DNA of 64,000 bases, taken from the NCBI GenBank assembly GCA_017513085.1, contig JAFWDK010000003.1, forward strand, positions 48,573 to 112,572. Direction: 5' to 3'. Positions 14,825 through 53,191 of this stretch are shown piece after piece. A program made the position numbers and the translations under genes. How positions within the stretch are numbered: the stretch's first letter is position 1; every line of letters starts with the position of its first letter. Under the pieces are notes generated by a model that made no database searches, was not told the origin of the DNA, and saw only the letters and a program-made list of their open reading frames with translations. The stretch comes from Clostridiales bacterium. GTDB taxonomy: Bacteria; Bacillota; Clostridia; Saccharofermentanales; Saccharofermentanaceae.

Positions 14825-14918
14825 GAACAACAGACTTCCTTTCATTGTGATCATCGTTAGCTATCATTGATAACCTACATAATCATGCACCATAAAAGGA
14901 AGTCTGTCAAGTTCATGA

Positions 14919-15665: not shown

Positions 15666-15694
15666 GATTCATCTCTCCTTTATATATGATTCTA

Positions 15695-15949: not shown

Positions 15950-15959
15950 ATTGACTCCT

Positions 15960-18148: not shown

Positions 18149-18180
18149 GTTAGTATATGCTAACCGTTGTGCAAATGCAA
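18149..18180 (-). promoter_or_regulatory. feoAB promoter (TTGCAT-17-TATACT) overlapped by second box GTTAGTATATGCTAAC (18149-18164)
   Basis: -35 at 18180-18175, -10 at 18157-18152; box has one mismatch. Confidence 0.7.
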
Positions 18181-18203
18181 GGGCATTTTAAAGATTTTCT
18201 TTC

Positions 18204-18836: not shown

Positions 18837-19675
18837 GCCCGCACACCTCCTTTAGTTTTTCCTATCAGAAAGCAAATCAAAAAACCAACCACATCAACTG
18901 TCACGATCGTAGATCCTACCGGTGTCGAATACATAAGCGCAATCACGATTCCGGCAAGTGTACAGATCAGTGACAACAGAGCAGCAAAAACCGTGACTGA
19001 ACGAAAACTCTTGAAGATCCTCATCGACGACAGAGCCGGAAAAATCACCAGTGCAGAAATAAGAAGTGATCCTACGAGATTCATCGCGAGAACGATAATA
19101 ACAGCAATCATGACCGCAATGAGGAAATGATACAGTTCCACTTTCATTCCGATGGCTCGTGAAAACTGTTCATCGAATGTTACACAGAAGATTTTGTTAT
19201 ATAACAAAATGAATCCGATAAAAACAAGAATGGAAAGGACCACACAAAGCCAAACTTCGGTCACCGATAATGTTAAGATCGAGGTCGAACCGAAGAGCGT
19301 AGTACATACATCCCCGGAAAGATTTGACGAAGTGGAAAACAAGTTCATCAGAAGATACCCGAATGCCAACGCTCCCACAGAGATCATCGCAATCAGGGCA
19401 TCCCCCTTCAGCTTCGCATTTTGTCCGGTACGAAGAAGAAGGATCGCGCAGATTATCGTAACCGGAAGGACAAGAAGCATCTCATTCGTAAGTCCGACCA
19501 CTGCCGCAACACTCATCGCGCCAAAAGCCACGTGTGACAGACCATCTCCGATATAGGAATACCGTTTCAAAACCAACGTCACACCCAGAAGCGCGGAGCA
19601 AAAAGCAATCAGAACACTGACGATCAAGGCTCTTTGCACCAAAGGCAACTGTAAATACATCCAGAGTTTATCCAT
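18833..19675 (-). CDS. znuB: Zn/Mn ABC transporter permease
   Basis: IGDGLSHVAFG, LFGS, VGSLLISAL motifs (ABC-3 family). Confidence 0.88.
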   Translation of the reverse strand: MDKLWMYLQLPLVQRALIVSVLIAFCSALLGVTLVLKRYSYIGDGLSHVAFGAMSVAAVVGLTNEMLLVLPVTIICAILLLRTGQNAKLKGDALIAMISVGALAFGYLLMNLFSTSSNLSGDVCTTLFGSTSILTLSVTEVWLCVVLSILVFIGFILLYNKIFCVTFDEQFSRAIGMKVELYHFLIAVMIAVIIVLAMNLVGSLLISALVIFPALSSMRIFKSFRSVTVFAALLSLICTLAGIVIALMYSTPVGSTIVTVDVVGFLICFLIGKTKGGVRA

Positions 19676-20375
19676 CGTAGCCCACCTCCTTTAAAAAATT
19701 GCTTCCGATATCGCTGTTCATATATTCATTTTTCGTGCCGAAGTGCACTGTCGTTCCAATATGCAGAATATGACTCGCATAGCGAAGTGCTGCAGCAATA
19801 TCGTGGGAGATCATGATCACCGTAAGGCCTTGTCCATGTAGTTCCTCAATTAAGTCATACATTTCACATGTCACTTTAGGATCCAATCCTGATACCGGTT
19901 CATCCATCAGCAAAAGTTTTCCTGATGCGCAAAGTGCCCTTGCAAGAAGGACCCGCTGTTGCTGTCCACCGGACAATTCACGGTAACACCTTTTACCAAG
20001 ATCTGTGATGTGCATCCTCTCCATAGCGTGATATGCTTTTTCTTTCTCGTCTTTCAGGTAAAAAGGCCGAAATCCGGCGCGTCCCTGACATCCGGACAGA
20101 ACAACTTCTGTCACGGATGCGGGGAAATCGCGCTGAACCAGAGTCTGCTGCGGAAGATATCCGATTTCATCGGCCTTCAGACCATCACCCATAATAATCT
20201 GTCCGGAAATCGGAGGTTGAAGGTGAAGAACCGTACGTATCAGAGTTGTTTTTCCGGATCCGTTCTCCCCGACAATACACAGATAATCTCCTCTTTGGAC
20301 TTGAAAACTCAAAGGCGGCAGGATAGCTTTTGATTCATATCCCAGCACCAGTTTCTCGATAGTCAGAAACGCCAT
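19668..20375 (-). CDS. znuC: Zn/Mn ABC transporter ATPase
   Basis: GENGSGKT, IGYLPQ, DFPASV, LSGGQQQRVLLARAL. Confidence 0.88.
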   Translation of the reverse strand: MAFLTIEKLVLGYESKAILPPLSFQVQRGDYLCIVGENGSGKTTLIRTVLHLQPPISGQIIMGDGLKADEIGYLPQQTLVQRDFPASVTEVVLSGCQGRAGFRPFYLKDEKEKAYHAMERMHITDLGKRCYRELSGGQQQRVLLARALCASGKLLLMDEPVSGLDPKVTCEMYDLIEELHGQGLTVIMISHDIAAALRYASHILHIGTTVHFGTKNEYMNSDIGSNFLKEVGYDG

Positions 20376-20392
20376 GATCCTCTCCCCCTGCT

Positions 20393-21445
20393 TTATGCGC
20401 CCAAGGCCTCTTTTAGTGCTTTTAGATTGGATTTCATCACGGAAAGATATGTTTTCCCATTTTTCACGTCGTCTCCGGTCGTCGACTGCAAAGAATCCAT
20501 CACCAGGATCTTTTTTCCTGACCCGGAAGCATTCTCCAAAACCGTTTCTGCGATTTTGTGTTGAGTTCCCTCAATCGTCAATACTGCCGGAAGATTCAGT
20601 TCATCCACTTTCCCTGACAGGAAGACGATCGTTTCGAAGCTGGCTTCACTCTCTGCCGAGCATCCGGTAAAAGCAGCATAATAAGTGAGGCCATAATCAT
20701 CTGCCATATATCTGAAAGGGAATCGGTCTGCAAACAGTATTGTCTTACAGGATGACTTCTCCACAACCTCTTTATACTCATTATCCAGAGTTTCCAGTTC
20801 GGAAATATAGGCATCCAGATTTTTCTTATAAATTCCTTTATGTTCCGGTATCAACTTCTCCAGTTCTGCTTCGATCTTCGTGCAGATCACCTTGGCGTGA
20901 CGAAGTGAAAGCCATACATGCTCATCATATTCAGGTTCCTCATGCTCATGATCATGATCGTGTTCTTCCTCATGGTCGTGGTCTTCGTCATGGTCATGTT
21001 CTTCCTCATGGTCATGTTCTTCCTCATGGTCGTGGTCATGTTCGTGTTCCATACCTTCGACCACTTCTTCTATTTTAACGTTGTCGCCAAGCACCTCAAG
21101 GAGATCGATCACGACCATATCTTTATTGGAAGCCTGTTTCAAAACATCGTCTACCCACTCGTCAGACTCTCCCCCTACATACACAAACATATCGCACGTT
21201 GTGATCTTAAGGATATCTTCCGCAGTAGGTTGATACGAGTGAAGATCCACTCCTTTATCCAAGAGCATCGTGACATCCGCATCTTCTTTATTCTCTCCAA
21301 GGATCGACATGACCCAGTCATATTCCGGGAAGATCGTTGTCACGATCGAGATTTTTTTCGAATCTTTTTTCTTTGTGTTTTGGCAAGCAGAAAAGCTCAC
21401 TGCAGTCGCTACTGCAGCAAGAAAACCGATTAATCTTTTATTCAT
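20393..21445 (-). CDS. znuA: Zinc ABC substrate-binding lipoprotein with His/Asp/Glu-rich loop (ZnuA/AdcA)
   Basis: Lipobox FSAC, DLHSYQP, (HDHEEE)n loop, DEHVWLS; GGAGG RBS before ATG 21445. Confidence 0.9.
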   Translation of the reverse strand: MNKRLIGFLAAVATAVSFSACQNTKKKDSKKISIVTTIFPEYDWVMSILGENKEDADVTMLLDKGVDLHSYQPTAEDILKITTCDMFVYVGGESDEWVDDVLKQASNKDMVVIDLLEVLGDNVKIEEVVEGMEHEHDHDHEEEHDHEEEHDHDEDHDHEEEHDHDHEHEEPEYDEHVWLSLRHAKVICTKIEAELEKLIPEHKGIYKKNLDAYISELETLDNEYKEVVEKSSCKTILFADRFPFRYMADDYGLTYYAAFTGCSAESEASFETIVFLSGKVDELNLPAVLTIEGTQHKIAETVLENASGSGKKILVMDSLQSTTGDDVKNGKTYLSVMKSNLKALKEALGA

Positions 21446-21450
21446 TTTTT

Positions 21451-21495
21451 TCCTCCACGAATTGATATATGAGTTAGAATCAAATCGTGGATGGA
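21451..21495 (-). promoter_or_regulatory. Hairpin sequestering the znuA Shine-Dalgarno
   Basis: mRNA UCC-A-UCCACGA-U-UUGAU...AUCAA-U-UCGUGGAGGA starts immediately after the upstream TGA. Confidence 0.6.
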
Positions 21496-21813
21496 TCAAT
21501 TATTCAATTGTATCTTACGGGAAACCGGAGTCGGACGCACCTGCACCCACACGGAAAAGGTAAGGATCGCATAAAAAACGGAAAGGCCGATAACCGCCAT
21601 ACCCGCATGACAGCATACTTCTTTCATGCCGGAGAGAACTTTCTCACACTGCGCCATGATCTCGCAGATCGGGCAATGTTCCTCTTCACACTCGTGATTC
21701 ATCTCCACGAACAAAAATAATCCAGAGAAAAGAATGGAGAATGTGATCAATAAACCGAGAAAAACGGAAGCCAATCGTAGAAGTTTCGAAGTCTTCTTTT
21801 GCCCTTTCTCCAT
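21496..21813 (-). CDS. Small two-TM Cys/His leader protein (HECEEEHCPIC) heading the Zn operon
   Basis: 105 aa, AAGGAG RBS, TM-HxCxxxHCPIC-TM, C-terminal PTPVSRKIQLNN. Confidence 0.75.
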   Translation of the reverse strand: MEKGQKKTSKLLRLASVFLGLLITFSILFSGLFLFVEMNHECEEEHCPICEIMAQCEKVLSGMKEVCCHAGMAVIGLSVFYAILTFSVWVQVRPTPVSRKIQLNN

Positions 21814-34242: not shown

Positions 34243-34857
34243 TCAGAAACCAAGCACCGCCCGCCATCCGGGGATGAAGAATTTCTCAAGAGTCTTCGCA
34301 TAGTGCATCGCCTGCTCTTTGGTGAAATCATGTTCTACCGCCGCTACAACTGCATCGATGTTCATAGTCACCAAAAGATGCATCTCCTCATCTGAAACCT
34401 CATTGACCGTGAATCCATTCTTCCTCGCATTCGCTATATATTCATGGGTATTTTTTTCTTCCATAAGAGCAATATCATGAACGAAATTGGCATACCTTGT
34501 TCCCTGGGAAGAGCAGATGATCAGTTTAAATGCATCAAGGTGCGAATAGATATAATCCAGCATGATCGAAGTGGAAGAAGAATCTTCCCACACGCGCGTT
34601 GTTTCCGGAAGATTCAGTGTCTCATTTTCTTTCTTTGCCAGATCATCGTACAAAAGCATCATGCCGTCGATAGCCGGATCCACAAGTGCCGAAAACATCT
34701 CTTCTTTACTCTCGAAATGTTTGTAAAGACCGGATGCACTCATTCCGGCAGCAGAAGCGATCCTGCGCATAGATGCGTCCATAAAACCGTATGTACGAAA
34801 CTCTTCGTATGCCGCTTTCATGATCAGATCGTGATGTGCTTTCTTATCGCGAACCAT
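34243..34857 (-). CDS. TetR/AcrR-family regulator
   Basis: EFRTYGFMDASMRRIASAAGMSASGLYKHF HTH. Confidence 0.9.
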   Translation of the reverse strand: MVRDKKAHHDLIMKAAYEEFRTYGFMDASMRRIASAAGMSASGLYKHFESKEEMFSALVDPAIDGMMLLYDDLAKKENETLNLPETTRVWEDSSSTSIMLDYIYSHLDAFKLIICSSQGTRYANFVHDIALMEEKNTHEYIANARKNGFTVNEVSDEEMHLLVTMNIDAVVAAVEHDFTKEQAMHYAKTLEKFFIPGWRAVLGF

Positions 34858-34886
34858 TTATCTTCCTTTCCAGATATTCAAAACAT

Positions 34887-34946
34887 ATTTAGCGAACAGT
34901 GTTTACTAACCGTAGTTAGAGTACACCGTTCGCTAAATCTTGTCAA
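34887..34946 (-). promoter_or_regulatory. TetR gene promoter (TTGACA-17-TACTCT) within a 52-bp imperfect inverted repeat, probable autoregulatory operators
   Basis: ATTTAGCGAAC(34887)...GTTCGCTAAAT(34938), containing two TTAGnGnAC-N3-GTTnnCTAA units. Confidence 0.55.
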
Positions 34947-34974
34947 CATGTTTTTTTCTTCTTTCAGGAAATCA

Positions 34975-35023
34975 TTGACGGATTTGGATGAACCCGATAA
35001 GATTGTAGTTAGCATACACTAAC
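34975..35023 (+). promoter_or_regulatory. xylA promoter (TTGACG-17-TAAGAT) followed by box GTTAGCATACACTAAC (35008-35023)
   Basis: -35 34975-34980, -10 34998-35003; box has one mismatch and spans the predicted +1. Confidence 0.75.
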
Positions 35024-35063
35024 TCGTTGTGCAAATTCACTATTATAAAATGGAGGTATCACT

Positions 35064-36392
35064 ATGAGTGAAATTTTTAAGGGTATCCCTCAGATCAAGT
35101 ATGAAGGACCAGAAAGCAAGAATCCGATGGCATTTAAGTACTATGATCCTGACCGAGTCGTTCTGGGAAAGAAAATGAGCGAGCAGCTTCCGTTTGCTAT
35201 GGCATGGTGGCATAACCTTTGTGCCAATGGCGTAGATATGTTCGGACGCGGCACGGCAGACAAACGCTTCGGGGCTGAGACTGAAGGAACAATGGAGCAC
35301 GCCAAGGCGAAAGTAGACGCCGGTATCGAGTTCATGAAGAAACTCGGCATTAAATACTTCTGCTTCCATGATGTCGATCTCGTTCCGGAAGCGGATGATA
35401 TTAACGAAACCAACAAAAGACTGGATGAGATCACGGATTATATCCTTGAGAAGACTTCCGGTACCGACATTAAGTGTCTCTGGGGTACAGCCAACATGTT
35501 CAGTAATCCCCGTTTCATGAATGGCGCCGGTAGTACAAATGATCTGGATGTTTATTGCTTTGCCGCAGCGCAGGTCAAGAAAGCCATCGAACTTACTGTA
35601 AAGCTCGGCGGACGAGGATACGTTTTCTGGGGTGGCCGCGAAGGCTACGAGACCCTTCTGAATACCAAGGTCAAATTCGAGCAGGAGAACATCGCCAACC
35701 TGATGAAAATGGCCAGAGATTATGGAAGAAAAATCGGATTTACCGGGACTTTCCTGATCGAACCGAAGCCGAAAGAGCCGATGAAGCACCAGTATGACTT
35801 CGATGCGGCAACAGCGATCGGATTCCTGAAAGAATACGGCCTGGACAAGGACTTCATGATGAATATTGAAGCGAATCACGCAACTCTGGCAGGTCATACA
35901 TTCCAGCATGAACTTCGTATCAGCCGCATCAACAACATGCTCGGTTCCATCGATGCGAACCAGGGCGATATCATGCTGGGCTGGGATACGGACTGCTTCC
36001 CGAGCAACGTATATGACACGACACTTGCTATGTATGAGATCCTGAAGAATGGCGGCCTTCCGGTCGGCATCAACTTCGACTCGAAGAACAGACGTCCGAG
36101 CAATACCTATGAGGATATGTTCTATGCGTTCATTCTGGGTATGGATTCCTTTGCTTATGGTCTTCTGAAGGCTGCAGAGATGATCGAGGACGGCCGCCTC
36201 GAGAAGAATATCGAAGAACGTTACGCTTCCTTCTCTTCCGAACTCGGACAGAAAGTAAGATCCGGAGAGTCCACGCTTGAAGAACTGGCAGCAAGAGCTG
36301 CCGAACTGAAGGCTCCTCAGAATCCTGTATCCGGTAAACAGGAATACCTCGAGGGTGTTCTCAATAATATTATTCTATCGAATAACGATTGA
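35064..36392 (+). CDS. xylA: Xylose isomerase (class II)
   Basis: AWWH, FHDVD, FWGGREGY, IEPKPKEP, NIEANHATLAGH, GWDTD; GGAGG RBS. Confidence 0.97.
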   Translation: MSEIFKGIPQIKYEGPESKNPMAFKYYDPDRVVLGKKMSEQLPFAMAWWHNLCANGVDMFGRGTADKRFGAETEGTMEHAKAKVDAGIEFMKKLGIKYFCFHDVDLVPEADDINETNKRLDEITDYILEKTSGTDIKCLWGTANMFSNPRFMNGAGSTNDLDVYCFAAAQVKKAIELTVKLGGRGYVFWGGREGYETLLNTKVKFEQENIANLMKMARDYGRKIGFTGTFLIEPKPKEPMKHQYDFDAATAIGFLKEYGLDKDFMMNIEANHATLAGHTFQHELRISRINNMLGSIDANQGDIMLGWDTDCFPSNVYDTTLAMYEILKNGGLPVGINFDSKNRRPSNTYEDMFYAFILGMDSFAYGLLKAAEMIEDGRLEKNIEERYASFSSELGQKVRSGESTLEELAARAAELKAPQNPVSGKQEYLEGVLNNIILSNND

Positions 36393-36444
36393 CAAAAGAA
36401 CTCCTCGATGGTATAAAGAAATGAGTTAGCATATGCTAACTCAT
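36389..36444 (+). promoter_or_regulatory. Orphan promoter (TTGACA-17-TATAAA, extended TG) followed by perfect box within 24-bp palindrome
   Basis: -35 36389-36394, -10 36412-36417, ATGAGTTAGCATATGCTAACTCAT 36421-36444. Confidence 0.8.
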
Positions 36445-36608
36445 ATCTTAATTCTAAATTCCCTCCCGCGAGTGCTTTTCTGGAATGGGCACAGGGAGGG
36501 AATTAATTATTCTAAAAAAGTTTCACATCGATCCTTCGTCAAATATACGAAAGAAACGGTCCTGTCAGTGATATCCTCACCGCAGGACCGTTTCAGCGTA
36601 TATCTTTT
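36424..36608 (+). ncRNA. Candidate metal-repressed small RNA between convergent xylA and eno
   Basis: Promoter and operator with no downstream sense gene; hairpins at 36457-36504 and 36543-36603; 3' end uncertain. Confidence 0.45.
36543..36608. terminator. Long bidirectional terminator-like hairpin between xylA and eno
   Basis: GAAACGGTCCTG(36553-36564)...CAGGACCGTTTC(36583-36594), extended by ATATACG/CGTATAT. Confidence 0.7.
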
Positions 36609-36618
36609 CCTAGAAGAG

Positions 36619-38063
<1,445 letters not shown>

Positions 38064-38173
38064 CAGATCATCCACGAATACTTTTGGGAGCAACAATGTC
38101 AAAAGGTTTACCCCATGAACTCTTCGCCTGGTCTGCAGTCAATTCAGTAGTTTCTATCACAGACAAAGCTATC

Positions 38174-39172
38174 TCATTCGAACTCAGAGATGGAAACATG
38201 CTCTCCTTTCCGGATCCTGTTCCGAAGGGTCATCAGTTCATGATCCTTTTTCTCTGCCAGGAGCAGAACGGCCGCTTCCTGATCATCCCGATGGATGATC
38301 TTATCAATACGGCCATTTCTGATCACGATACGTTTCGGAGACATCAGGGAAAGAATCGGGTCATGGGTCGCGATCAAGACGATCTTATCATTACCTGTCA
38401 GAAGCTCCATCGCCTTTCTTCGATCGATACCTGCATTTTCGATCTCATCGATCAAAACGATCGGCGCACGTGAGAGGTAGGCACAGTCTGCAATCATCAG
38501 CGCACGTGACTGTCCTCCGCTTAAGGCTGTCACCGCGGTATCCCGGGAAAAAGGCTCACCAGCCAGGGAAACAGCTACCTCATACACTTTCTGCACTTTC
38601 CCGGGGATCTCTTCCTTTCTGAGGAAACACTCGGCATGCATGGTAAGAAATTCTTCCACATTCATATCCAGGACGAAATTCATATTCTGCGAAAGCTGAG
38701 CGATCGAACGTCTTCTTTCGCCTGTTTTGAGCCATTCTTCCTTATTTTTTCCGTCAATCAGTATCGTTCTCTGTGTCGGAGTGTCCTTTAGTGCCTGCCA
38801 CTCGATATCTTCCAGGAGGCGGCTCTTTCCGGAGCCGGTTTCACCGACAATGGCGATCATTTCACCTTTTCGGATAGTTATAGGATCGAAGCACTCACTC
38901 GCACCATCTTTCCCAACTCCCGGAATGATCGTGATGGATCCGACACTTCGGATCTCCTCGGAGAGACATTCCGACGCACTTCGGAGATAGGCAGAAAATT
39001 CCTCTTCCACTTCGTTTCGGCTCATCTTTCTCTGCTCGAAAAATGAATCCGGAAGCTCCATCAGGTTTTCAGAAAAGCTCTTTTCCTTATCCCAGATCAC
39101 CTCAAAGTCATCCAGATAGTATGGCAGATAGGGGTAGTCCTTCTCCAGTTGCAAAAGCGGGATCGTCAGCAT
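38174..39172 (-). CDS. Stand-alone ABC-type ATPase with N-terminal extension
   Basis: GETGSGKS, LSGGQSR, LIDEIE, ATHD; no cognate permease of its own. Confidence 0.8.
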   Translation of the reverse strand: MLTIPLLQLEKDYPYLPYYLDDFEVIWDKEKSFSENLMELPDSFFEQRKMSRNEVEEEFSAYLRSASECLSEEIRSVGSITIIPGVGKDGASECFDPITIRKGEMIAIVGETGSGKSRLLEDIEWQALKDTPTQRTILIDGKNKEEWLKTGERRRSIAQLSQNMNFVLDMNVEEFLTMHAECFLRKEEIPGKVQKVYEVAVSLAGEPFSRDTAVTALSGGQSRALMIADCAYLSRAPIVLIDEIENAGIDRRKAMELLTGNDKIVLIATHDPILSLMSPKRIVIRNGRIDKIIHRDDQEAAVLLLAEKKDHELMTLRNRIRKGEHVSISEFE

Positions 39173-39188
39173 TCATGTACCTTCTTTC

Positions 39189-39872
39189 TCAGATCTTGAT
39201 GTGTTTAACGTTTCCGATCTGGTACTCGGTTCCTATCTTTGTTTCACCTAAACAATAGGAACAGAGCGCCATAGGCATCGGAAAACGAAGCGTCTCATTT
39301 TCGATTTCTCTCTCCATAGCCATATTCCGGATCGCCCGTGTGATCTCTGAAATTCCCTGTCCGGTAAGCCCGTTGACAGGAAATATCAGTGCTTTTGGAT
39401 TAGAGGTCTCAACTCTTCGCATGAACACTTCTCTTTCTGCTTGAGAAACGATATCTCCTTTTGTAATAAGTACAATATCTGCCAGTTTCAGGAGAGGACC
39501 GATTTTTCTGGGAGCCCGGATCCCGCTTAACTGATCGATCACACAGACAGCCAGCACATTTTTGATGTAGGGCGAGCATCGGTTACAAAGGCCGGCACTC
39601 TCCGTAAAAAGATAGTCCAGCTCTTCCTTTTTCCCCCAATCATAGACAGTCTGAATATTCGTGATGTAATAGTGATCGGGACAAAGTTCGGAAGAAAGTC
39701 CCTTTGCCGATGGGATCCCGGCCTGACTATAGGTCTTGTCGTCTTCGGTCTGGAGGCAGTCAAACTTACACGCCCCCACTTTACTTCCATCTCTCATAAT
39801 TTCTTTTAAGATCCGCGTCATAACGGTAGTTTTGCCCGTTGCAGGCGGTCCGGCAAAGGTTACCAGCTTCAT
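39189..39872 (-). CDS. HypB/UreG-like (G3E) Cys-rich GTPase
   Basis: GPPATGKT, KFDC, LCPDH, ESAGLCNRC, ITKGD, C-terminal CSYC. Confidence 0.8.
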   Translation of the reverse strand: MKLVTFAGPPATGKTTVMTRILKEIMRDGSKVGACKFDCLQTEDDKTYSQAGIPSAKGLSSELCPDHYYITNIQTVYDWGKKEELDYLFTESAGLCNRCSPYIKNVLAVCVIDQLSGIRAPRKIGPLLKLADIVLITKGDIVSQAEREVFMRRVETSNPKALIFPVNGLTGQGISEITRAIRNMAMEREIENETLRFPMPMALCSYCLGETKIGTEYQIGNVKHIKI

Positions 39873-40798
39873 TACTTTTCCTCCGTCATGATCTTCTTAC
39901 ATCTTTGGATTATTTCCGGAAGGGAGGGATCATAGAGATACTCCCAGCCGACAAAGCGAAGACTTCCGGGAAGAGCATTGACAACACCTGTAATGTTACT
40001 CGGGAAGAATCCCTTCTCTCGGAAGATCCTGCCGGCCTCCTCGCGGCAGAGGATGGACATGAGCCTTTCCGCCTCGGGATTTGATTTTGAAGTTACAACA
40101 AGTGGCAGGATCGGTGCACCATCGCTGAACCAGATGAGTTTCATTCCCTTCTGACGGGCTTTGATCTCCCCGAAGATCCAAGGCATCAGGTAGATATATG
40201 GTTTTTCGCCTTCGATTCCACCCGGCTTGATCATCTGTGAGGGATGCACGATCGCACAGATATTCTTTCTTAATCGTCTGATTCCCTCGTCTCCCGCAAC
40301 TTGATGAATATATGTCAGAATGATCCCGTCAAACATGTGGCCGTCATCCGGAAATGCAATACTGTTTTCAAACTCACCCGAAAGCAGGTCAGAAAAAGCC
40401 TTCGGTTCACTTCTTCCCTTCGACTGATCGGTATCCACGACCATGACCAGAGGAATGCACGAATAGATATCAAACATTCCTTTCGGATCAGAAAAGGAAG
40501 CAAACGCCGGATTCCCGAGAAGTGTTTCTCCTGATGCATGAAATCCTTTTTCTTTTATGACAGGATGATTGACGAGACCTTCGATACCTGTCCCCATGAA
40601 AACATCCGGATCACACTCTTTAAAGATCTTATCGACCCAGGATAAACCGAACTCCGCTAATGCGATGTTATATTCTTTCCGGTCAGAGATATACTCATCC
40701 AGATAATCCTGAAAAGGAAGCTGCACCACACATGGAACACGTCCGACCAGTTTCGCTTCTTTATTCTCTGCTGTGTAATGAAGTTCTTCTTCTCTCAC
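39872..40798 (-). CDS. Substrate-binding-fold protein lacking a signal peptide
   Basis: GRVPC, PLVMVVD, PKAFSDLL, HPSQM, WFSDGAP; GTG 40798 after GGAGG, start uncertain. Confidence 0.6.
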   Translation of the reverse strand: MREEELHYTAENKEAKLVGRVPCVVQLPFQDYLDEYISDRKEYNIALAEFGLSWVDKIFKECDPDVFMGTGIEGLVNHPVIKEKGFHASGETLLGNPAFASFSDPKGMFDIYSCIPLVMVVDTDQSKGRSEPKAFSDLLSGEFENSIAFPDDGHMFDGIILTYIHQVAGDEGIRRLRKNICAIVHPSQMIKPGGIEGEKPYIYLMPWIFGEIKARQKGMKLIWFSDGAPILPLVVTSKSNPEAERLMSILCREEAGRIFREKGFFPSNITGVVNALPGSLRFVGWEYLYDPSLPEIIQRCKKIMTEEK

Positions 40799-41636
40799 GA
40801 AATCGATTCCTCCCTTCGACAACTGTCACCTGTTCGCTTATGTCCCGACTGAGTACATCAATGGGTAGTACACATACATGTCTTTTCTCTTCGATCATAA
40901 AATCACGGATCCGCACATCAACATCAAAAGCCCTGCAAAGATTTTCTTCGGAAATCACTTCGTTTGCATTTCCGAATGAATTGCTTCCATCACGATTCAG
41001 GATCAGGGCTTTATCGGATATAGCCAGCGCGTGCTCCGGATAGTGAGTATTTACAATGGATGAGATGCCCCGTTCTCTGCACAGCTTATGGATCGTATTG
41101 ATGACGATCAGCTGGTTTTTAAAGTCGAGATTCGACTCCGGTTCATCCAGTATCAGAAGTTCAGGATCTGTAGCTAATGCTCTGGCAATAAGGACCATCT
41201 GCAGTTCACCACCGGAGATCTCATTACACAGCTTCCCGCGAAGCCGGCTCATCCCGACCATATCCAGACATTCTTCCGCAAAGCGGTAGTCTTTCTTCGT
41301 CGGCTGCGCCAGTATTCCCAGGTGGGCATTTCGTCCGAGAAGAACCATCTCTTCTGTGGTATAGGAGAATGCGGAGCGCTTTGCCTGCGGCACATATCCT
41401 ATCTTCTTCCAGATCTCCTGGTTCTTCCATTCGTGCCATGGTTTACCATTGATATATGTACTGCCGGCACGCCATGGAAGGAAGCCGAGCGTGCATTTCA
41501 GCAGAGTCGTCTTGCCGACACCATTTGATCCCAGGATCGAAAGGATCTCTCCCTCTTTGACAGAGAAAGAAAGGTTTTTAAGGATGTCAGGTCCTTTCTT
41601 ATATCCGAATGATGCATCTTTCACCTCAAAGATCAT
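40761..41636 (-). CDS. Iron-chelate/cobalamin-type ABC ATPase (FecE/BtuD-like)
   Basis: GSNGVGKT, IGYVPQ, VLLGR, ISGGELQ, LDEPESNLD. Confidence 0.88.
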   Translation of the reverse strand: MIFEVKDASFGYKKGPDILKNLSFSVKEGEILSILGSNGVGKTTLLKCTLGFLPWRAGSTYINGKPWHEWKNQEIWKKIGYVPQAKRSAFSYTTEEMVLLGRNAHLGILAQPTKKDYRFAEECLDMVGMSRLRGKLCNEISGGELQMVLIARALATDPELLILDEPESNLDFKNQLIVINTIHKLCRERGISSIVNTHYPEHALAISDKALILNRDGSNSFGNANEVISEENLCRAFDVDVRIRDFMIEEKRHVCVLPIDVLSRDISEQVTVVEGRNRFRERRRTSLHSRE

Positions 41637-42631
41637 GTTTTTACACCTCCTGTCCGACGAAGCAGAATAATAAATACCGGGGCGCCGATAATCGCAGTAA
41701 GGATTGAGATCGGCAGTTCCGCAGCGGTTGCAGATCTCGCAACTGTATCAATAAGCAGAAGGTACGTCGCTCCCAGTCCGATGCTGGCCGGAATAACATA
41801 TTTATTATTGTTTCCGAACATCATACGGGAGATATGCGGGATCAAAATACCGATCCATCCGACCTTTCCGCACATGGCGATGACAGATCCGGTAATCATG
41901 GTAGAGGATACGATCGTAAGTCCCCTCATCAGTTTCAGGTTGATTCCCATTGCCCTTGCCTCATCATCGTTTAATGAAAGAACATTCAGTTTCCATCTAA
42001 GACAGAAGAGAATGATGATACCGATAAGCATCGGGATCGTTCCGATCCACAGTTTTTGGAAACTGGTTCCGGATAAACTGCCCATAAGCCAGTATGTGAT
42101 TTCCGGAAGTACATCCTGCGGATCCGCTACATACTTTATAAGAGAAACCAGAGCTTCAAAAAGTGAGCTGATCACCATACCGGATAGGATCAGCATGACA
42201 AGCGAAGACTCACCTTTCACACGGCTGATCATGTACACCAGCCATACGGATAAGAGACCCATAGCAAAAGCCGTTCCCTGAATTCCAAGAGATGGAAGCC
42301 GCAGCATAATTCCGAGCGTCGCCCCAAAAGAAGCGCCCGTGGCGACTCCTAAAGTATCAGGAGTCGCCAGGGGGTTGGAAAACATACTCTGAAAGGCTGC
42401 ACCGGCAACGGCCAGACCCGCGCCTGCGATAATCGCCAGGATCGATCTGGGAAGACGGATCTTATACAGTACCGTCTTCACATTCGGATCATCGACCTTC
42501 ATGCCCAGGAGGACTTTTACGCAGTCTTTGATGGGGATCGAGTACCGGCCCACACCTAACGCGATCAGAAAAGATGCGACAAGTGCAATAGTAATGCCGA
42601 TCACCCAGATTAATTCTGTTTTCTTTTTCAC
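41633..42631 (-). CDS. Iron-chelate ABC permease (FecCD/BtuC family)
   Basis: IRLPR, FSNPLATPDTLGV..GA, WLMGSL, GWIGILIPH, IIGAP. Confidence 0.9.
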   Translation of the reverse strand: MKKKTELIWVIGITIALVASFLIALGVGRYSIPIKDCVKVLLGMKVDDPNVKTVLYKIRLPRSILAIIAGAGLAVAGAAFQSMFSNPLATPDTLGVATGASFGATLGIMLRLPSLGIQGTAFAMGLLSVWLVYMISRVKGESSLVMLILSGMVISSLFEALVSLIKYVADPQDVLPEITYWLMGSLSGTSFQKLWIGTIPMLIGIIILFCLRWKLNVLSLNDDEARAMGINLKLMRGLTIVSSTMITGSVIAMCGKVGWIGILIPHISRMMFGNNNKYVIPASIGLGATYLLLIDTVARSATAAELPISILTAIIGAPVFIILLRRTGGVKT

Positions 42632-42652
42632 GTGTTCACCTTTGTCCCCGGA

Positions 42653-43909
42653 TCAGAGGCCTCTTGCCGCATCACGTGACGGAATGAACATCATATCCAG
42701 CTGCTCGTCAGAAAGATCATATCCGCACATTTCCTTATAGTATTCCTTTGCGATCTTACGGATATCCGTATCCTTGAAAAGATCCGGATAGATCACAGAA
42801 GCCATCCACTGCATAGTAACCGGAGAATCTCCACCCGGTGTATAGCTTCTATAAAGACCAAGAGGCATCTTATAGACACGCTTGTTCTTTACTGCATTGA
42901 TCGTGCTCCAATCATCTGTACCGATAGCATTGTTATAGAGATCTTCCGGCTGTGTGCCGCAGAAATTGGTGATAATGATAATATCCGGATTCCATTCATA
43001 TACCTGTTCCATCGATATCTTCAGGATAGAACCATCCGGCACTTCGCTGGCAACATTGTATGCATTTACGGACTCACACCACCACTGGCCGAAGAAGTTC
43101 ACACCGGAGGCCACCATCGCCGCATCTGTGTACTTGAAGAGAACCAGGACGCGTGCCTTCTGATCATCCGGAATGTCCTTTGTTTTTTCGATGATATCCG
43201 CATGGACAGCATCACTCTTCTCCATAGCCTTCTTTGCAAAATCCGAACCGCCGAAGATTTGGTCGAGAAGGTCGATCCAATGTTCATAGGTCTCGATAAT
43301 GTCATACTTCCAGGCAGAAGCAGATGTAGTAACTGCCGGGATGCCGGCTTCACGGATCGCTTTTGCCTGTTCCTGTCCGACACCAATGACAATATCCGGC
43401 TTAAGGATCAGGAGTTCCTCCAGATTTACCTCATCACCACTGATAAAAGCTGTATTTGCGTTTAAGATCTCCGGGTAGATCTGTCCAAGAAGGCCGTTTT
43501 CCGCAGCACTCATAGATACCGGATGGATACCCACGATCTTTTCCGCAGAACCAAGATACTCTGCAATAACAGATGCCAGCGGATAGAAAGACCCTACTGC
43601 AATTCGATTGATCGTATTAGGAACCTCAACGGTATCTCCGGCATGGTCGACAACAGTATGTGTGCCATTGGGATCACCAAACGGGTTCTCGGAATCTTTG
43701 CTTTCTCCTTTGACCTCTGTGCTGGTCTCGGAAGACTCCTCCGAAGAACTTTCGGAAACACTCTCCGACGTCTCCGCACTGGTCTCCTCGATCGTTTGCG
43801 TATCAGAAGTCGACGAAGCGCTCGTTTCCTCATCTTTCTTTGCACAGGCCGACAGGGCGCAAAGTGCAATAGCTACCGACATTAAGCCGGCAAGAAGTTT
43901 TTTCTTCAT
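42653..43909 (-). CDS. Iron-chelate/B12-type substrate-binding lipoprotein
   Basis: Lipobox LSAC, Ser/Glu/Thr linker, NLEELLILKPD, ISMEQVYEWNPD, AVKNKRVY. Confidence 0.88.
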   Translation of the reverse strand: MKKKLLAGLMSVAIALCALSACAKKDEETSASSTSDTQTIEETSAETSESVSESSSEESSETSTEVKGESKDSENPFGDPNGTHTVVDHAGDTVEVPNTINRIAVGSFYPLASVIAEYLGSAEKIVGIHPVSMSAAENGLLGQIYPEILNANTAFISGDEVNLEELLILKPDIVIGVGQEQAKAIREAGIPAVTTSASAWKYDIIETYEHWIDLLDQIFGGSDFAKKAMEKSDAVHADIIEKTKDIPDDQKARVLVLFKYTDAAMVASGVNFFGQWWCESVNAYNVASEVPDGSILKISMEQVYEWNPDIIIITNFCGTQPEDLYNNAIGTDDWSTINAVKNKRVYKMPLGLYRSYTPGGDSPVTMQWMASVIYPDLFKDTDIRKIAKEYYKEMCGYDLSDEQLDMMFIPSRDAARGL

Positions 43910-43985
43910 AATAATCCTCTTTCTACTTACTTTAGTAAGAACTATGTATATTTTTAAGCCGGTCGTTTAAAAGCGCCGAACGGGC

Positions 43986-45125
43986 TTACAGATCATGTTC
44001 AAGCCATTTATTTTCATCCAGGTAATTCCAGTAACTGTTTTTCCCTACACGGCTTGAGACGGAGTACTGCGGAAAAGGTATCTGATCTTTTACCCCTCCC
44101 GAAAACTCTATAAATAACGGGTCCGCGATCAGAAGATCCTTCTGATCCTTCACTACGGAAAGGATCGTATCTTCATCACTTAGATAAGTGGATACATCAT
44201 CTTCATGTTCGATCGTATATAGCTTGCAGTCTATATTCTCTGACCGCAGGAAGTTTCGTATCGAGTCCCCGATCACCGAGTCAGCAATAATGACTCCGGA
44301 TCGTCGGGAAGTCTTAGGACTAAGCACCTTAAACACAGCGGTCTTCCCTTCGCGGACCAGTTCAAGATACGAACTCATCTGTTTCTGTCCTATCGGGAAA
44401 TTCACGATATAAGGTGTCTGATACTTTTTTTCCATAGCTTTGGCGATCGCAAGTCCCGCCTGGTTCCAAACCAGGTTCAAAGTGACTTTCTCCGGATACT
44501 GGTAAAACAAAAGAGAGCCGTACATGCCCTGTTCCTGCATCAGACAGATACCATTCTCCGTAAGTCTGCCGCAAAGGCTGTCATACACTTCCTGATGCAT
44601 ATCCAGCGGGGAGATGCCCGGAATAGCTACTGTTCCTCCATCTTTCCAGGGTTCGCGCTTCTCCGGGTTTTTCTCGTAATAGTCTGTGAGTGCAAAGTAA
44701 GCCATAAGAATACCGTCATAGTAAGAACCTTTAATTCCCGCGGTCGGAAATCCGAAACAAGGGATACCGGTTCTATTCTCGACCGCTCTGGCGACTCCGT
44801 TAAAATCAAAACCGATGACATTCGGCACCGGACTTCCGACAATAGCTATAAACTTCGGATGTCGTTCCAAAGCATTCTTTGTGATCTTACCGATCAGTTT
44901 CTCATCGTCACCGAGGATAGCATCCACCTTTCGAAGGCTTGTGCAATACACCATAGAATGACTGCCGTACCATCTCGGCTCATCGAAATGGGTATAATTT
45001 CCCGTGCAGCCTGCCGCATCATGAATGCAGATCATACCGCCGAGATCAAAAAGCGCGGAGCATACCCCTGAATAATCTCCTGCAAAAGGAGGAAGATACA
45101 TACAAACTTTATGTTTTTTATTCAT
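43986..45125 (-). CDS. Nitrogenase component-1-like protein (second subunit, NifK/N-like)
   Basis: PPFAGDYSG, HDAAGC, DAILG, VGSPVP.VIG.D oxidoreductase-nitrogenase pattern; 379 aa. Confidence 0.78.
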   Translation of the reverse strand: MNKKHKVCMYLPPFAGDYSGVCSALFDLGGMICIHDAAGCTGNYTHFDEPRWYGSHSMVYCTSLRKVDAILGDDEKLIGKITKNALERHPKFIAIVGSPVPNVIGFDFNGVARAVENRTGIPCFGFPTAGIKGSYYDGILMAYFALTDYYEKNPEKREPWKDGGTVAIPGISPLDMHQEVYDSLCGRLTENGICLMQEQGMYGSLLFYQYPEKVTLNLVWNQAGLAIAKAMEKKYQTPYIVNFPIGQKQMSSYLELVREGKTAVFKVLSPKTSRRSGVIIADSVIGDSIRNFLRSENIDCKLYTIEHEDDVSTYLSDEDTILSVVKDQKDLLIADPLFIEFSGGVKDQIPFPQYSVSSRVGKNSYWNYLDENKWLEHDL

Positions 45126-46372
45126 CAGACGATTCCTCCGTATTCATCGATCAGTTTTCGGATATCCGCTTTTTCTTTCATCGCGAACCGCATAGTATCC
45201 ATAAGGATCCTTATTCCCTGATATCCGAGCATTCCTTCATCAGAAGAGATATCTGCAACATATCGCGCATTGCTTAAGTAGGCAGCTTCTTCGCCTACTG
45301 CCAAAGCTATTGTTTCCGTTTCCGAACGGAAAACCGAATCCGGATGATCCCCCTGAATGATCTCGACCTGCGGATACTCGTTAAGGAGGATATCGGCATA
45401 CTTCTGATCGGGTCCCACCACTTCAGAAAGATAGACACGCGTTACACGGAAACCGTATTCCAGAAGTGCTACGGCCAGAGATAGGGGAAATACGGTTGCA
45501 CTGTCAGAAACAAAGACCGGCACATCCGCAACTTCTTCTCTGGCATAATAGATCGCCTGTTCACATAAGGAACGGTCGTCTTTAATCTTTTCAGAAAGAT
45601 CTTCTCCCAAAAAGTCAGACAGATCCTGATACTCTTTAGTGACAGTATCAATATCATAGGATATCGGCATTTCCACGTGTGTAGCGCCGGTTCTTTTCTC
45701 CAGACGTCTCAGCGCATATCTCACAAATGGTTTTATCACTATAGATCTTCCGGAGCGGGACATCTCCTCATACTCTGAAAAAGTACTGCACGAGGAAATC
45801 TGGCGGACCATATGGCCATTTTGATTCAGGACCCGGATCAGCTCGTTATCTTCCGGGATCCCGACGAAGTTTCCCCAGAGCGTTACACCATCATCCGTCT
45901 TCTCCCAATCGGGTAGCACACTTAACATCGCATCAAACGTCGTGACTGCCGGTGGCATCTTGGTGGAAGATGCAATTGGATTCATATGTCCGGCACGGAA
46001 AAGGATATCCGGATATCTTTTCCCGAGGATCGCGGTCACTTTCTCCATATCCGTACCGATAAAATCATCCAGGCAGGAAACATAAATAAAGAGAAGACGG
46101 ATGTCCTTTTCCGTTCTTTCCAGAAGCTCATCCACGCCATCCAGGATCTCCTGATCGTATCCCTCCACGATGTCGCTCTGGTCAATATAAAGATAAGAAA
46201 TACGGTCTTTATAGTGATGCTGGATCGCGCCGAGCGCCCCATGCCGGAAGCACGCTGACGGGCAGACAAACAAAAGATAAGATCCGGGGATAAGTGCAGC
46301 GACACGGATGATTCCCCATCCGTCATGCGCAGGATTGCAGTAACAAAGGTTCGGTTCAAATCGCATGTTCAT
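45125..46372 (-). CDS. Nitrogenase component-1-like protein (first subunit, NifD/E-like)
   Basis: PAHDGWG, VCPSACFRH, DIVEG, VSCLDDFIGTD, GYQG; TGATG coupling at both ends. Confidence 0.78.
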   Translation of the reverse strand: MNMRFEPNLCYCNPAHDGWGIIRVAALIPGSYLLFVCPSACFRHGALGAIQHHYKDRISYLYIDQSDIVEGYDQEILDGVDELLERTEKDIRLLFIYVSCLDDFIGTDMEKVTAILGKRYPDILFRAGHMNPIASSTKMPPAVTTFDAMLSVLPDWEKTDDGVTLWGNFVGIPEDNELIRVLNQNGHMVRQISSCSTFSEYEEMSRSGRSIVIKPFVRYALRRLEKRTGATHVEMPISYDIDTVTKEYQDLSDFLGEDLSEKIKDDRSLCEQAIYYAREEVADVPVFVSDSATVFPLSLAVALLEYGFRVTRVYLSEVVGPDQKYADILLNEYPQVEIIQGDHPDSVFRSETETIALAVGEEAAYLSNARYVADISSDEGMLGYQGIRILMDTMRFAMKEKADIRKLIDEYGGIV

Positions 46373-47184
46373 CACCTCCGAAGCAGATAAATCAATTCTT
46401 CGGTATACGGATCTTTTTGTATGGACGTATCATCGCCATGGCAGAGACTGATTATTCTATCTGCCAATTTTTCATAATCCTTAGCGATCGACGATCGGGG
46501 AAACTTCTCGATAACAGTCTTTCCCTCCTGTTCCGCCGCCTGCACCATCTTACTTCTATGGATATGTGAAATAACCGGAAGGTCGTGTTCTCTGGCAAAG
46601 CGGGTAACAAGATCCTTTTCATTCTCAACAAGCCGCTCATTTAAAATCAGGCCACGTACACGGGCGTATCCGCGCTCTTTGAAATTGTCTACGGCACGGG
46701 AAATATTATCTGCGGCAAAAAGAGCCATCATCTCACCGGAAGTAACGATAAAGACATGTTCCGCATATCCGTCACGGATCGGCATGGCAAAACCGCCACA
46801 GACTACATCGCCGAGAACATCATATAGAACGATATCCGGGGCGTATTTTTCAAAAGCACCGAGCTCTTCCAGTTTCTGGAGAGCCGATATGATACCAAGA
46901 CCAGCACATCCGATACCGGGCGTCGGTCCACCCGATTCTACACAGAGGACACCGTTATATCCATCGTGAACGAGATCAGAAAGCTCGACGTCTTCACCCT
47001 TCTCCTTGATCATTCCGAGGACCGTGCTGATCTTCTCGCCCCCCATCAGGTTTTTAGTAGAGTCCGCTTTCGGATCGCAACCGATCTGCATGACTTTATA
47101 ACTGCGTGAAAGAGCGGCTGCAAGATTCGACGTTGTGGTTGATTTGCCTATTCCGCCTTTACCATAAATAGCTATCTTTAACAA
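46372..47184 (-). CDS. NifH-like Fe protein (nitrogenase-like reductase component)
   Basis: [50 protein letters not shown]; TTG start. Confidence 0.93.
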
Positions 47185-47288: not shown

Positions 47289-47302
47289 GTTGCCTGTGCA
47301 AC
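47289..47302. promoter_or_regulatory. Candidate Crp/Fnr-family site GTTGC-N4-GCAAC
   Basis: 5-4-5 palindrome centred at -41.5 from the predicted nifH-like +1. Confidence 0.55.
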
Positions 47303-47313
47303 ATCTCAAAAAA

Positions 47314-47979
47314 ATGTTAAAAAACGAAATACACGCATTACAATCAGATCTATTTCGAGGATTCAACCCGGACGAAATCGATAGCATCCTGTCTCGGACC
47401 TGCTCATGCAGGAGAAAATTTACGAAGAATGTCGATATTTTTTCTCCCGGGGAGGTCATATGCCACACCGGCATGATCCTGTCCGGGAATATCGATGTTC
47501 AGTTTTCCGGATTTTCCGGCAAAGAGGAACTAGTCGTCCGGGAATCCCCCGGTGAACTGATCGGTCAGGCGTTTTCTCTCACAAAAACAGAAAACTCTTT
47601 TATACACTTCCGTTCTGTCGGAGATACTGAGATCCTCTTCATGAATCTTGATCTGCTCTTCTCTAAACCCGAGATCGATCCGGTCCTCGGGAAGCTCTCT
47701 GTCAATCTCATGAGGATCCTGGCCAGCACGAATATTCAGCTTAATAAGAAGATCTGCCTGCTTACGCAAAAATCACTCCGCGATAAACTTCTCCTCTTTT
47801 TTGAAGAAGGCGCTACAGAGGGGCCGGAAGGAAAAACCTGCCGTTTAACTCTGACTCGGGAGGAACTGGCTTCCTATATCAGTGCGGAAAGATCTTCTGT
47901 CTGCCGGGAACTCGGACGGATGCAGGACGATGGCTGTATCCGCTTAGTAGGTAAAAAAGTGATCCTTGCCACCGGCTAA
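47314..47979 (+). CDS. Crp/Fnr-family transcriptional regulator
   Basis: cNMP-like domain (ILSG..PGELIG) and HTH LTREELASYISAERSSVCREL; start 47290 (TTG) or 47314. Confidence 0.88.
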   Translation: MLKNEIHALQSDLFRGFNPDEIDSILSRTCSCRRKFTKNVDIFSPGEVICHTGMILSGNIDVQFSGFSGKEELVVRESPGELIGQAFSLTKTENSFIHFRSVGDTEILFMNLDLLFSKPEIDPVLGKLSVNLMRILASTNIQLNKKICLLTQKSLRDKLLLFFEEGATEGPEGKTCRLTLTREELASYISAERSSVCRELGRMQDDGCIRLVGKKVILATG

Positions 47980-52542: not shown

Positions 52543-53163
52543 TTACTTATCCTTATCTTCGAGAATAAAGTTCATCCATCCCAGGATCAGATGCTCCATC
52601 GCAGGCTTCATGAACCGCAACGCCTTCTTCTCATCTTTAACGTGGGTCAAAAGATGAACGAAAGTCATGATCGAAAGATGCGATAGCCAGTGGACCATCG
52701 GCCGGTTCAGCTGTTTTCCCGGAACCGACTTGGCATAGTTCTCCGCCAGTCCCATAAAGTTCTTCTCGATCATCTCGATAAACTCATCGACCACATGCTC
52801 ATATTTCGAGCCGGTCGATTTCGAGATCAGGAGAGTCACCGCATCGTGGTTCTGATAAAGAACATGGATCAGTTCTTCGACAAAAGGATCGTGGTCACCG
52901 GGCTTATGTACATATTGAGCCAGGTCTTCCTCCATATCCTCTTGAAGGTGATGGATAAGCGCGCCCAACACGCCCTGATAGGTAGGTTCCACCAGAGCCG
53001 AAAAGAGCCCATCCTTATCCTTGAAGAAGAAATAGACTGCTCCGGTCGTCACACCTGCTTTACTGCAGATCTGACGCAGAGAGGCATTCTGAAAACCCTT
53101 CTCCATGAACTCTTCCTTCGCACAGGAAAGAAGCTTTTCTCTCGTTTCATTATCGTTTTTCAT
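52543..53163 (-). CDS. TetR/AcrR-family regulator
   Basis: EFMEKGFQNASLRQICSKAGVTTGAVYFFF HTH; start chosen by GAGG RBS. Confidence 0.9.
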   Translation of the reverse strand: MKNDNETREKLLSCAKEEFMEKGFQNASLRQICSKAGVTTGAVYFFFKDKDGLFSALVEPTYQGVLGALIHHLQEDMEEDLAQYVHKPGDHDPFVEELIHVLYQNHDAVTLLISKSTGSKYEHVVDEFIEMIEKNFMGLAENYAKSVPGKQLNRPMVHWLSHLSIMTFVHLLTHVKDEKKALRFMKPAMEHLILGWMNFILEDKDK

Positions 53164-53191
53164 GATCATCCTCACAATTTGCGTCATTCAC

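Follow-up and report, generated by a model that had tools for sequence, protein, structure and literature searches.

A candidate metal-repressed small RNA derived from the eno leader in a Clostridiales bacterium

Metal-repressed small RNAs (sRNAs) are familiar from Proteobacteria, Bacillus and mycobacteria, where RyhB, PrrF, FsrA and MrsI are examples of sRNAs repressed by iron. EutX/Rli55 carries the ANTAR-binding hairpins of eut leaders, and GlmY mimics GlmZ. MicL and DapZ are sRNAs of 3′ ends that have a promoter of their own inside, or just after, the upstream gene. A limited search of the literature found no metal-repressed sRNA of rumen or gut Clostridia. In a stretch of 64,000 nucleotides (nt) from a Clostridiales bacterium of the family Saccharofermentanaceae (assembly GCA_017513085.1, contig JAFWDK010000003.1, positions 48,573 to 112,572; hereafter the window), an orphan unit composed of a promoter, an operator palindrome and a hairpin stands between the genes xylA and eno. 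An original prediction, made from the letters of the window, had proposed a metal-repressed sRNA at this place. Our study suggests that the unit on balance probably encodes a small non-coding RNA that is repressed by iron/manganese, measures about 90 or about 190 nt and derives from the leader of eno.

An orphan promoter, operator and hairpin between xylA and eno

The unit begins with a promoter on the plus strand, designated P_O, whose −35 hexamer TTGACA (36389–36394) overlaps the stop codon TGA of xylA (36390–36392). An extended −10 element, TGG-TATAAA, occupies 36409–36417 (TGG at 36409–36411, TATAAA at 36412–36417), and its hexamer lies 17 nt past the −35. Among the six species that have xylA, the −35 hexamer is invariant despite a difference of one codon at the C-terminus of xylA. 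The extended −10, GATGGTATAAAGA, is identical in the same six, and the promoter spacer drifts in sequence at a fixed length. The operator box follows 7 nt after the −10. Its core, GTTAGC-N4-GCTAAC (GTTAGCATATGCTAAC, 36425–36440), is embedded in a perfect palindrome of 24 base pairs (bp) at 36421–36444. The half-sites of the orphan operator are invariant among the relatives and the N4 spacer is variable. Transcription of the unit is predicted to start near 36424. A promoter reading in the other direction at the palindrome was considered and rejected: the minus strand offers no −35, and its TAAGAT-like hexamer is not conserved.

Past the palindrome, the plus strand carries a linker, CAUAUCUUAAUUCU (36445–36456), which is conserved and, according to the alignment, is also present in the eno leader. 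Hairpin O (36457–36504) comes next, with the arms AATTCCCTCCC (36457–36467) and GGGAGGGAATT (36494–36504). It folds into an outer stem of 11 bp (AAUUCCCUCCC/GGGAGGGAAUU), a 4x1 internal loop and an inner stem of 4–5 bp. The apical loop CUUUUCUGGAAUGG is conserved, with the consensus CYGGAAUR constant among the orphan copies. Folding of the region is much more favourable than that of shuffled sequence, with a z-score of −7.3 on the plus strand and −9.0 on the minus strand. Covariation in related genomes, to which the original prediction had looked for support, was found: the RNAalifold consensus has compensatory changes in 6 of 22 predicted pairs. In a structure of our own, 96.2% of the cells are paired, against 44–59% when the partner is slid, and none of 500 shuffles attained its pairing or covariation score. 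Covariation of the inner stem is seen among the orphan copies themselves, with the pairs GUGC/GCAC, UGUC/GACA and GGGACU/AGUCCC. These comparisons indicate that the structure is conserved as RNA. The hairpin is followed by a U-rich tail, AAUUAUUCU (36505–36517, plus strand), which might act as a weak intrinsic terminator and would then give an RNA of about 90 nt.

Further downstream, at 36543–36603, a long GC-rich hairpin folds as the intrinsic terminator of eno, which is transcribed from the minus strand, where the hairpin is followed by UUCUUUCGUAUAUUU. It may also stop transcripts from P_O or xylA at about 36612. Relatives have a different hairpin sequence where the eno terminator sits, and BLAST conservation stops near 36519. 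The promoter TTGACA-17-TATAAA with its TG, the palindrome and both hairpins lie exactly where the original prediction had placed them, but the second hairpin, which it had called terminator-like, is the terminator of eno, and its sequence is not conserved.

No protein appears to be encoded by the unit. The sole open reading frame (ORF) on the plus strand past P_O (36433–36720, 95 amino acids, aa) starts within the palindrome, has no ribosome-binding site (RBS) and runs antisense into eno. It is not conserved in the relatives, and no conserved ORF was found on either strand in seven species, which agrees with the earlier statement that no sense-strand gene with an RBS follows the promoter. A search of 36300–36700 against Rfam, which had also been proposed, returned no match: with Rfam 15 and E up to 10, the best score was 23.2 bits, compared with a gathering score of 80, and no iron sRNA was found.

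Paralogy with the eno leader

The gene eno (36619–37917, minus strand, ATG at 37917) encodes an enolase of 432 aa with the Pfam domains Enolase_N and Enolase_C, and the protein is 97–99% identical across seven relatives. Its promoter and operator occupy 38011–38063 on the minus strand (TTGACA at 38063–38058, 17 nt, TATAAA at 38040–38035, 8 nt, box at 38026–38011). The 5′ leader contains hairpin E (37943–37995, minus strand; AAUUCCUCUCC...GGGGAGGAAUU), which has an 11-bp stem with an inner GCGCC/GGCGC stem. Read along the minus strand, the parts are promoter, box, linker UGUGUCUUGAUCUUU, hairpin E, Shine-Dalgarno (SD) sequence and ATG, which up to the hairpin is the order found in the orphan unit. 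P_O and the eno promoter have the same −35 and −10 hexamers, the same 17-nt spacing and the TGn, and 10 of the 17 spacer bases in common. With 11 of 12 consensus matches each, the two stand at the top of 17 box/promoter rows scored in the window. By these sequence features the orphan unit and the promoter, operator and 5′ leader hairpin of eno are paralogues, hairpin O being the paralogue of hairpin E.

The genome from which the window comes is called G000 here, and its relatives are numbered G001 onwards. A covariance model, R1, was built on 15 copies and run over 142 genomes of the family. It matched in eight of them, with two copies in each of seven (G000 and six relatives) and one in G003, and gave none in the other 134. 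The matches are located only beside eno, and the positive genomes are exactly those eight of the 24 genus genomes that have an enolase (PF00113). Each two-copy genome has one orphan copy and one eno leader. The single copy of G003 combines an orphan-type apical loop with an eno-type tail and lies directly 5′ of eno. A protein gene directly after the promoter in relatives, which the original prediction had held to speak against an sRNA, is found in G003, where that gene is eno; no gene lies past the orphan unit in any of the seven genomes that carry the orphan copy.

Between species, the 133-nt orphan unit is 75–88% identical, and the 150 nt upstream of eno are 75–89% identical. The corresponding values are 58–73% for the third-codon positions of eno and 38–63% for the spacer from hairpin O to the eno stop codon. 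Gene conversion does not explain the conservation, since the orphan-type and eno-type copies remain separate types in each species. Both G005 and L078, a metagenome contig of independent origin, have lost xylA, and both retain the hairpin behind a box-controlled promoter. As judged from these comparisons, purifying selection has acted on the orphan promoter, operator and hairpin.

The surroundings of the two copies have been rearranged. xylA (35064–36392, plus strand) encodes a xylose isomerase (NCBIfam TIGR02630, 661 bits) and is preceded on the same strand by its own promoter and operator at 34975–35023, consisting of TTGACG, 17 nt, TAAGAT, 4 nt and the box GTTAGCATACACTAAC at 35008–35023. 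In G003, eno, xylA and a TetR gene follow one another in this order on the same strand. In G000, G001, G002, G010, G017 and G021, xylA is inverted with its own box promoter, and the orphan unit lies 3′ of xylA and faces the 3′ end of eno. In G005 (loci L032 and L075) and in L078, the xylA promoter and box are joined directly to the linker of hairpin O, and the deletion runs exactly from the xylA box to the orphan box, as expected from a recombination between the two boxes. The eno of G005 matches in two pieces (residues 1–256 and 252–432) in different frames and is either broken or mis-assembled. A metagenome scan yielded four contigs only, three of them G021-like and one G005-like, and an orphan copy downstream of eno is absent from 73 other eno loci. 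Two DNA runs over 34800–38300 gave fragmentary pieces of low depth and no informative joint. The ancestral arrangement may have been either G003-like or G000-like.

In contrast to the enolase, iPGM occurs in all 24 genus genomes, at 96–98% identity. In the other 16 species of the genus no enolase (PF00113) was found to account for the step from 2-phosphoglycerate to phosphoenolpyruvate. The nearest relatives of eno, at 81–93% amino acid identity, come from records labelled Lachnospiraceae, Butyrivibrio, Ruminococcus and Blautia, and some from Treponema. Because these nearest relatives belong to other families and most of the genus is without eno, the gene was probably acquired horizontally, and the same looks to be true of eno and xylA together.

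Control of eno by the box may extend beyond this clade. Of 79 related eno loci, from several families, 56 have a box (at most two mismatches) in the 300 nt upstream of the gene. In most of the box-bearing leaders there is a conserved AAUAAAUCAU motif, and after it a long hairpin whose 5′ arm is pyrimidine-rich and CUCCUUUC-like; in the eno loci of other taxa (L082–L160), the motif region was taken as 60–160 nt upstream of eno. The eno leaders of seven loci gave no Rfam match at the gathering score. R1 found no match outside the clade when run against the other eno loci, its sole match, L081, belonging to the clade. It is possible that the eno leader of these other taxa is an undescribed RNA motif.

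The operator and its metal regulon

The sequence GTTAGC-N4-GCTAAC, with at most one mismatch, occurs 15 times in the 64-kb window, against an expectation of 0.07. The exact core occurs 19 times in the 3.06-Mb genome and the reversed control pattern is not found. Twelve of the 19 exact boxes are inside the window, which may be called an iron island. The boxes of the window start at 5928, 5959, 9572, 14144, 18073, 18149, 26588, 34185, 35008, 36425, 38011, 47239, 49494, 52477 and 59134. They are intergenic and lie over promoter cores, with the sole exception of that at 59134, which is inside an exporter gene when the gene is taken as its longest frame. Their placement is either just past the −10, as in eno, xylA, the orphan unit and an ABC exporter pair, or across the −35.

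Behind the boxes of G000 stand feoA-feoB with gpmA downstream, an ECF-type transporter, methyltransferases, xylA and eno, and a further cluster described below. Outside the window, a box precedes a P1B-type ATPase, and two boxes precede an operon of a 187-aa DUF3793-like protein, a flavodoxin and an MntR-like protein. Two genomes of other families (Butyrivibrio- and Ruminococcus-labelled records) have a box before feoA-feoA-feoB, DUF3793-flavodoxin and Peripla_BP_2, and also before a ZIP transporter, a Fur-family gene, an ABC exporter and eno. feoAB and flavodoxin are classic marks of the iron-limitation response. By the company that it keeps, the palindrome is a genuine operator of a metal (iron/manganese) regulon.

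The further cluster is an operon at 38174–47184 that encodes NifH-like protein, two NifD/K-like proteins, Peripla_BP_2, FecCD, ABC ATPases, a solute-binding protein (SBP) and a CobW GTPase; a box lies between it and a gene of the Crp/Fnr family (47290–47979). Its content suggests a nitrogenase-like reductase tied to metal or tetrapyrrole import. Four modules of a TetR gene, a box and an ABC exporter are present in the window, all on the minus strand, at 14207–14854, 34243–34857, 52543–53187 and 59189–59788, and a fifth TetR gene adjoining a box is found elsewhere in G000 (C6:8713–9405). A sequence, CGTTGTGCAAAT, directly follows both the distal feoA box (18149; 18165–18182) and the xylA box (35008; 35024–35040) and may be a second shared site. 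At G000 C6:43080–45670 (L057), an HMA-domain protein and the P1B-type heavy-metal ATPase stand behind a perfect box, and the ATPase reads as two overlapping ORFs (365 and 354 aa), perhaps through a frameshift or an assembly error.

Adjoining feoAB is a ZnuA/ABC-3 (tro-like) operon, at 18204–21499, which unlike its neighbours has no box (at most one mismatch) upstream. The last gene of this operon (18204–18836, 210 aa) has no Pfam or NCBIfam match. The two feoA boxes also precede gpmA, which lies 295 nt past feoB in the same orientation (region 14919–17861). This gene encodes the cofactor-dependent, metal-independent phosphoglycerate mutase, while iPGM is Mn-dependent. By analogy, gpmA may be a metal-sparing substitute for iPGM (G000 C24:5838–7466), which recalls the gpm of the Treponema pallidum tro operon.

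Fur boxes are of an odd type, 7-1-7 or 19 bp. The palindrome of the operator described here is even: two half-sites of 6 bp are separated by a spacer of 4 bp. The same 6-4-6 geometry is seen in the enterobacterial MntR consensus AACATAGCnnnnGCTATGTT, and the orphan operator, GAGTTAGC-ATAT-GCTAACTC, agrees in geometry with the MntR pattern AACATAGC-nnnn-GCTATGTT (PMC1698941). TroR operators, as they appear in the oligonucleotides of Table 2 of the report concerned, are TTTGAT-N4-ATCAAA and likewise 6-4-6, and the T. pallidum tro operon of the same report includes the glycolytic gene gpm (PMC2628430). By sequence, TroR was rejected as the type of regulator, the half-sites being TTTGAT there and GTTAGC here.

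The genome contains two MntR/DtxR-like genes and two Fur-family genes, and neither of the latter has a box nearby. One MntR-like gene (126 aa) is the third of the flavodoxin operon behind the two boxes, which makes it a candidate for autoregulation. Of the 17 box-bearing genus genomes, 16 have a close homologue of it (63% identity or more), as against none of the six box-less ones, these genomes being related and not independent; the box-bearing exception, G018, is 88% complete. Metal repression is well supported by inference, and the box-binding repressor would be a metal-loaded DtxR/MntR-family protein, responding to iron, manganese or both. The Crp/Fnr gene at 47290–47979 was rejected as the box binder, its close orthologues occurring in 7 of 23 genomes and the box in 17 of 23.

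Proposed mechanism, alternatives and comparison with described systems

The region 36389–36517 would be a complete and functional transcription unit, which originated by duplication from the promoter, operator and leader hairpin of eno and is now isolated between xylA and eno. When metal is available, the loaded DtxR/MntR-family repressor on GTTAGC-N4-GCTAAC, at about +1 to +16, would block P_O. Under scarcity of iron and/or manganese, P_O would fire along with eno, xylA, feoAB and flavodoxin. The resulting RNA would start at about 36424 and contain, in order, the operator palindrome as a 5′ hairpin, the conserved linker and the 48-nt hairpin O, and its 3′ end would lie in the U-rich tail, for a length of about 90 nt, or at the bidirectional terminator of eno, for about 190 nt. 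The metal-regulon operator, the conserved promoter and the lack of an ORF make a metal-repressed sRNA, as originally predicted, the best reading of the locus, with the amendment that the operator has the 6-4-6 geometry of MntR/TroR and is not a Fur-type box.

Several observations weigh against this reading. The consensus promoter scan passed over P_O, since the scan demands T, the usually conserved base, at position 6 of the −10 and TATAAA has A; the promoter of eno, which has to be active, contains this hexamer too. The compensatory changes mostly split the two paralogue types, so that independent events are few, and there are only about five distinct orphan lineages. The tail past hairpin O is only moderately U-rich, being fair in three genomes (G002, G021, G005) and poor in two (G010, G017), and the 3′ end of the RNA is uncertain because the homologous eno-leader hairpin must allow transcription through. 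Neither loop pairing nor a scan of translation starts revealed a target or binding partner for the RNA. A kissing loop between the orphan GGAAU and AUUCC of the eno leader would have −5.0 to −6.1 kcal/mol, which is matched by 5–33% of shuffled loops and is not significant. The single-stranded linker and loop were compared with 2274 candidate translation starts of G000 only by a crude duplex scan, and in this one genome the 10 top linker matches examined (Wzt-like ABC, RF, M1 peptidase, UxuA, a type I restriction-modification enzyme, GNAT, iPGM, EAL and two unknowns) showed no enrichment of iron-sulfur (Fe-S) proteins.

Two more specific partners were considered and rejected. iPGM, whose start region gave the most promising match of the scan, 10 nt long and perfect in G000, could have been a metal-sparing target, but neither G002 nor G005 keeps the match, and genomes in which the RNA is absent have this start region too. 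A CsrA sponge, suggested by the GGA in the loop, was dismissed because PF02599 is present in 0 of 24 genus genomes, control genomes being matched.

The hairpin could also be kept as the terminator of xylA, and the operator because it offers the repressor an additional site, and this leads to a different, unlikely but substantial explanation, in which the unit is a relic. A leftover duplicate of the eno promoter and leader, from an inversion of xylA or eno, may then fire and give an RNA without a role, and the palindrome might alternatively form a loop with the eno operator, at a distance of 1.6 kb. The rearrangements agree with such an origin, as the genome with one copy, G003, has an eno-xylA operon, and in the seven with a second copy xylA is inverted or lost; the two copies flank eno as inverted repeats. 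Hairpin O lies 65 nt past the xylA stop codon, the place expected for a terminator, and the failure to find a target is also in keeping with a relic. Nevertheless, the −35, TG and −10 are fixed at 17 nt while the spacer drifts, which is needless for a terminator or a bare operator, and the conserved apical loop CYGGAAUR is not required by terminators. The hairpin is moreover kept behind a box promoter in the absence of xylA, and its conservation equals that of the working eno leader. A rather less probable alternative makes P_O a cis-acting convergent promoter, whose transcripts would pass both hairpin O and the terminator of eno and reach the 3′ end of that gene, so that antisense RNA or interference damps eno on derepression. 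P_O does face the eno 3′ end, 175 nt off, the U-tracts past hairpin O and past the eno terminator on the plus strand are weak in several species, and the homologous eno-leader hairpin is evidently no stop to transcription. However, conservation ends just past hairpin O, a strong GC-rich hairpin stands between P_O and eno in all species, and interference would explain the promoter and not the hairpin and its loop. Nor is there an obvious logic in producing sense and antisense transcripts from one signal.

The model attached to the original prediction, a RyhB/FsrA-like iron-sparing riboregulator whose CCCUCCC pairs with the SD of mRNAs for iron-rich proteins, appears improbable, although it shares with the favoured sRNA a promoter that is to all appearance metal-regulated. 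The C-rich tract is indeed complementary to GGAGG, and a limited search of the literature found no iron-repressed sRNA of Clostridia. Against the pairing role, the tract is the 5′ arm of the 11-bp stem: CCCUCCC is paired with GGGAGGG in the minimum free energy, centroid and consensus structures, and the pairing covaries through the swaps CCCUCCC/GGGAGGG, CCUCUCC/GGAGAGG and CCCCUC/GAGGGG. The C-rich stem is best taken as structural, since the same stem is present in the eno leader. The lack of an Rfam match, of Fe-S enrichment in the top 10 linker matches of the crude scan in one genome and of conservation in the iPGM match likewise disfavours the model. It is hardly credible that a small protein is encoded after the promoter. 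GGGAGGG resembles an SD sequence and short ORFs are present, for example one of 28 aa from the ATG at 36485, but no canonical start codon lies 5–12 nt past GGGAGGG, the frame, start and length of the ORFs differ among seven species, and the linker has indels.

If the sRNA is transcribed, the function that we favour is that of a trans-acting mimic of the eno leader hairpin, since the RNA copies the eno leader and would be made under the same signal. Tentatively, the mimic could be induced together with eno and titrate a factor that reads the leader hairpin, whether protein, RNase or ribosome, setting in this way the level of enolase. The system might be part of a wider, undescribed control of enolase by a metal repressor and a structured leader across rumen and gut Clostridia.

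A metal-repressed sRNA is a known kind of regulator; what would be unusual is a traceable origin by duplication of the promoter, operator and leader of an mRNA. The origin would be visible because the single-copy state, in G003, and the duplicated state are both present in sister species. The regulon may outweigh the RNA in importance, as an operator of the DtxR/MntR type presides over a large iron-limitation regulon that unexpectedly includes enolase. Taken together, the regulon and the box-bearing eno leaders suggest that metal status and lower glycolysis are connected in anaerobes in a way not described before. A DtxR-family metal repressor over a glycolytic gene has a precedent in the gpm of the T. 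pallidum tro operon (PMC2628430).

Among operators, those of MntR and TroR are the closest to the one described here. Like them, it consists of two 6-bp half-sites around a 4-bp spacer, lies over the promoter core and is found before metal-uptake genes. It has the half-site pattern xTAGC in common with MntR, and as the T. pallidum tro operon includes gpm, so the present regulon includes a glycolytic gene, eno. It differs in that the half-site is GTTAGC and not CATAGC or TTTGAT, and the regulon appears much larger, with 19 exact sites, has the iron hallmarks feoAB and flavodoxin and extends to eno (PMC1698941, PMC2628430).

The candidate RNA resembles RyhB, PrrF, FsrA and MrsI in having an orphan promoter under a putative metal-dependent repressor, a short structured product and no ORF. 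Unlike these, it has no Rfam match, its operator is of the MntR/DtxR type and not a Fur box, its C-rich tract is inside a stem, no iron-protein targets were found for it, and it is a paralogue of an mRNA leader. In this last respect it is comparable to EutX/Rli55 and GlmY, being like them a free-standing copy of a structured element from a regulated transcript, presumably under the same signal. No binder of the eno leader hairpin is known, in contrast to those systems, so that a decoy action here would be pure inference; the apical loops of the orphan copy and the eno leader differ in seven of the eight genomes. With MicL and DapZ, the unit has in common a promoter that overlaps the end of the upstream coding sequence, here the xylA stop codon, and possibly a terminator shared with the upstream mRNA. 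Unlike MicL and DapZ, however, its promoter and RNA are copied from the 5′ region of another gene and not from the 3′ end of xylA.

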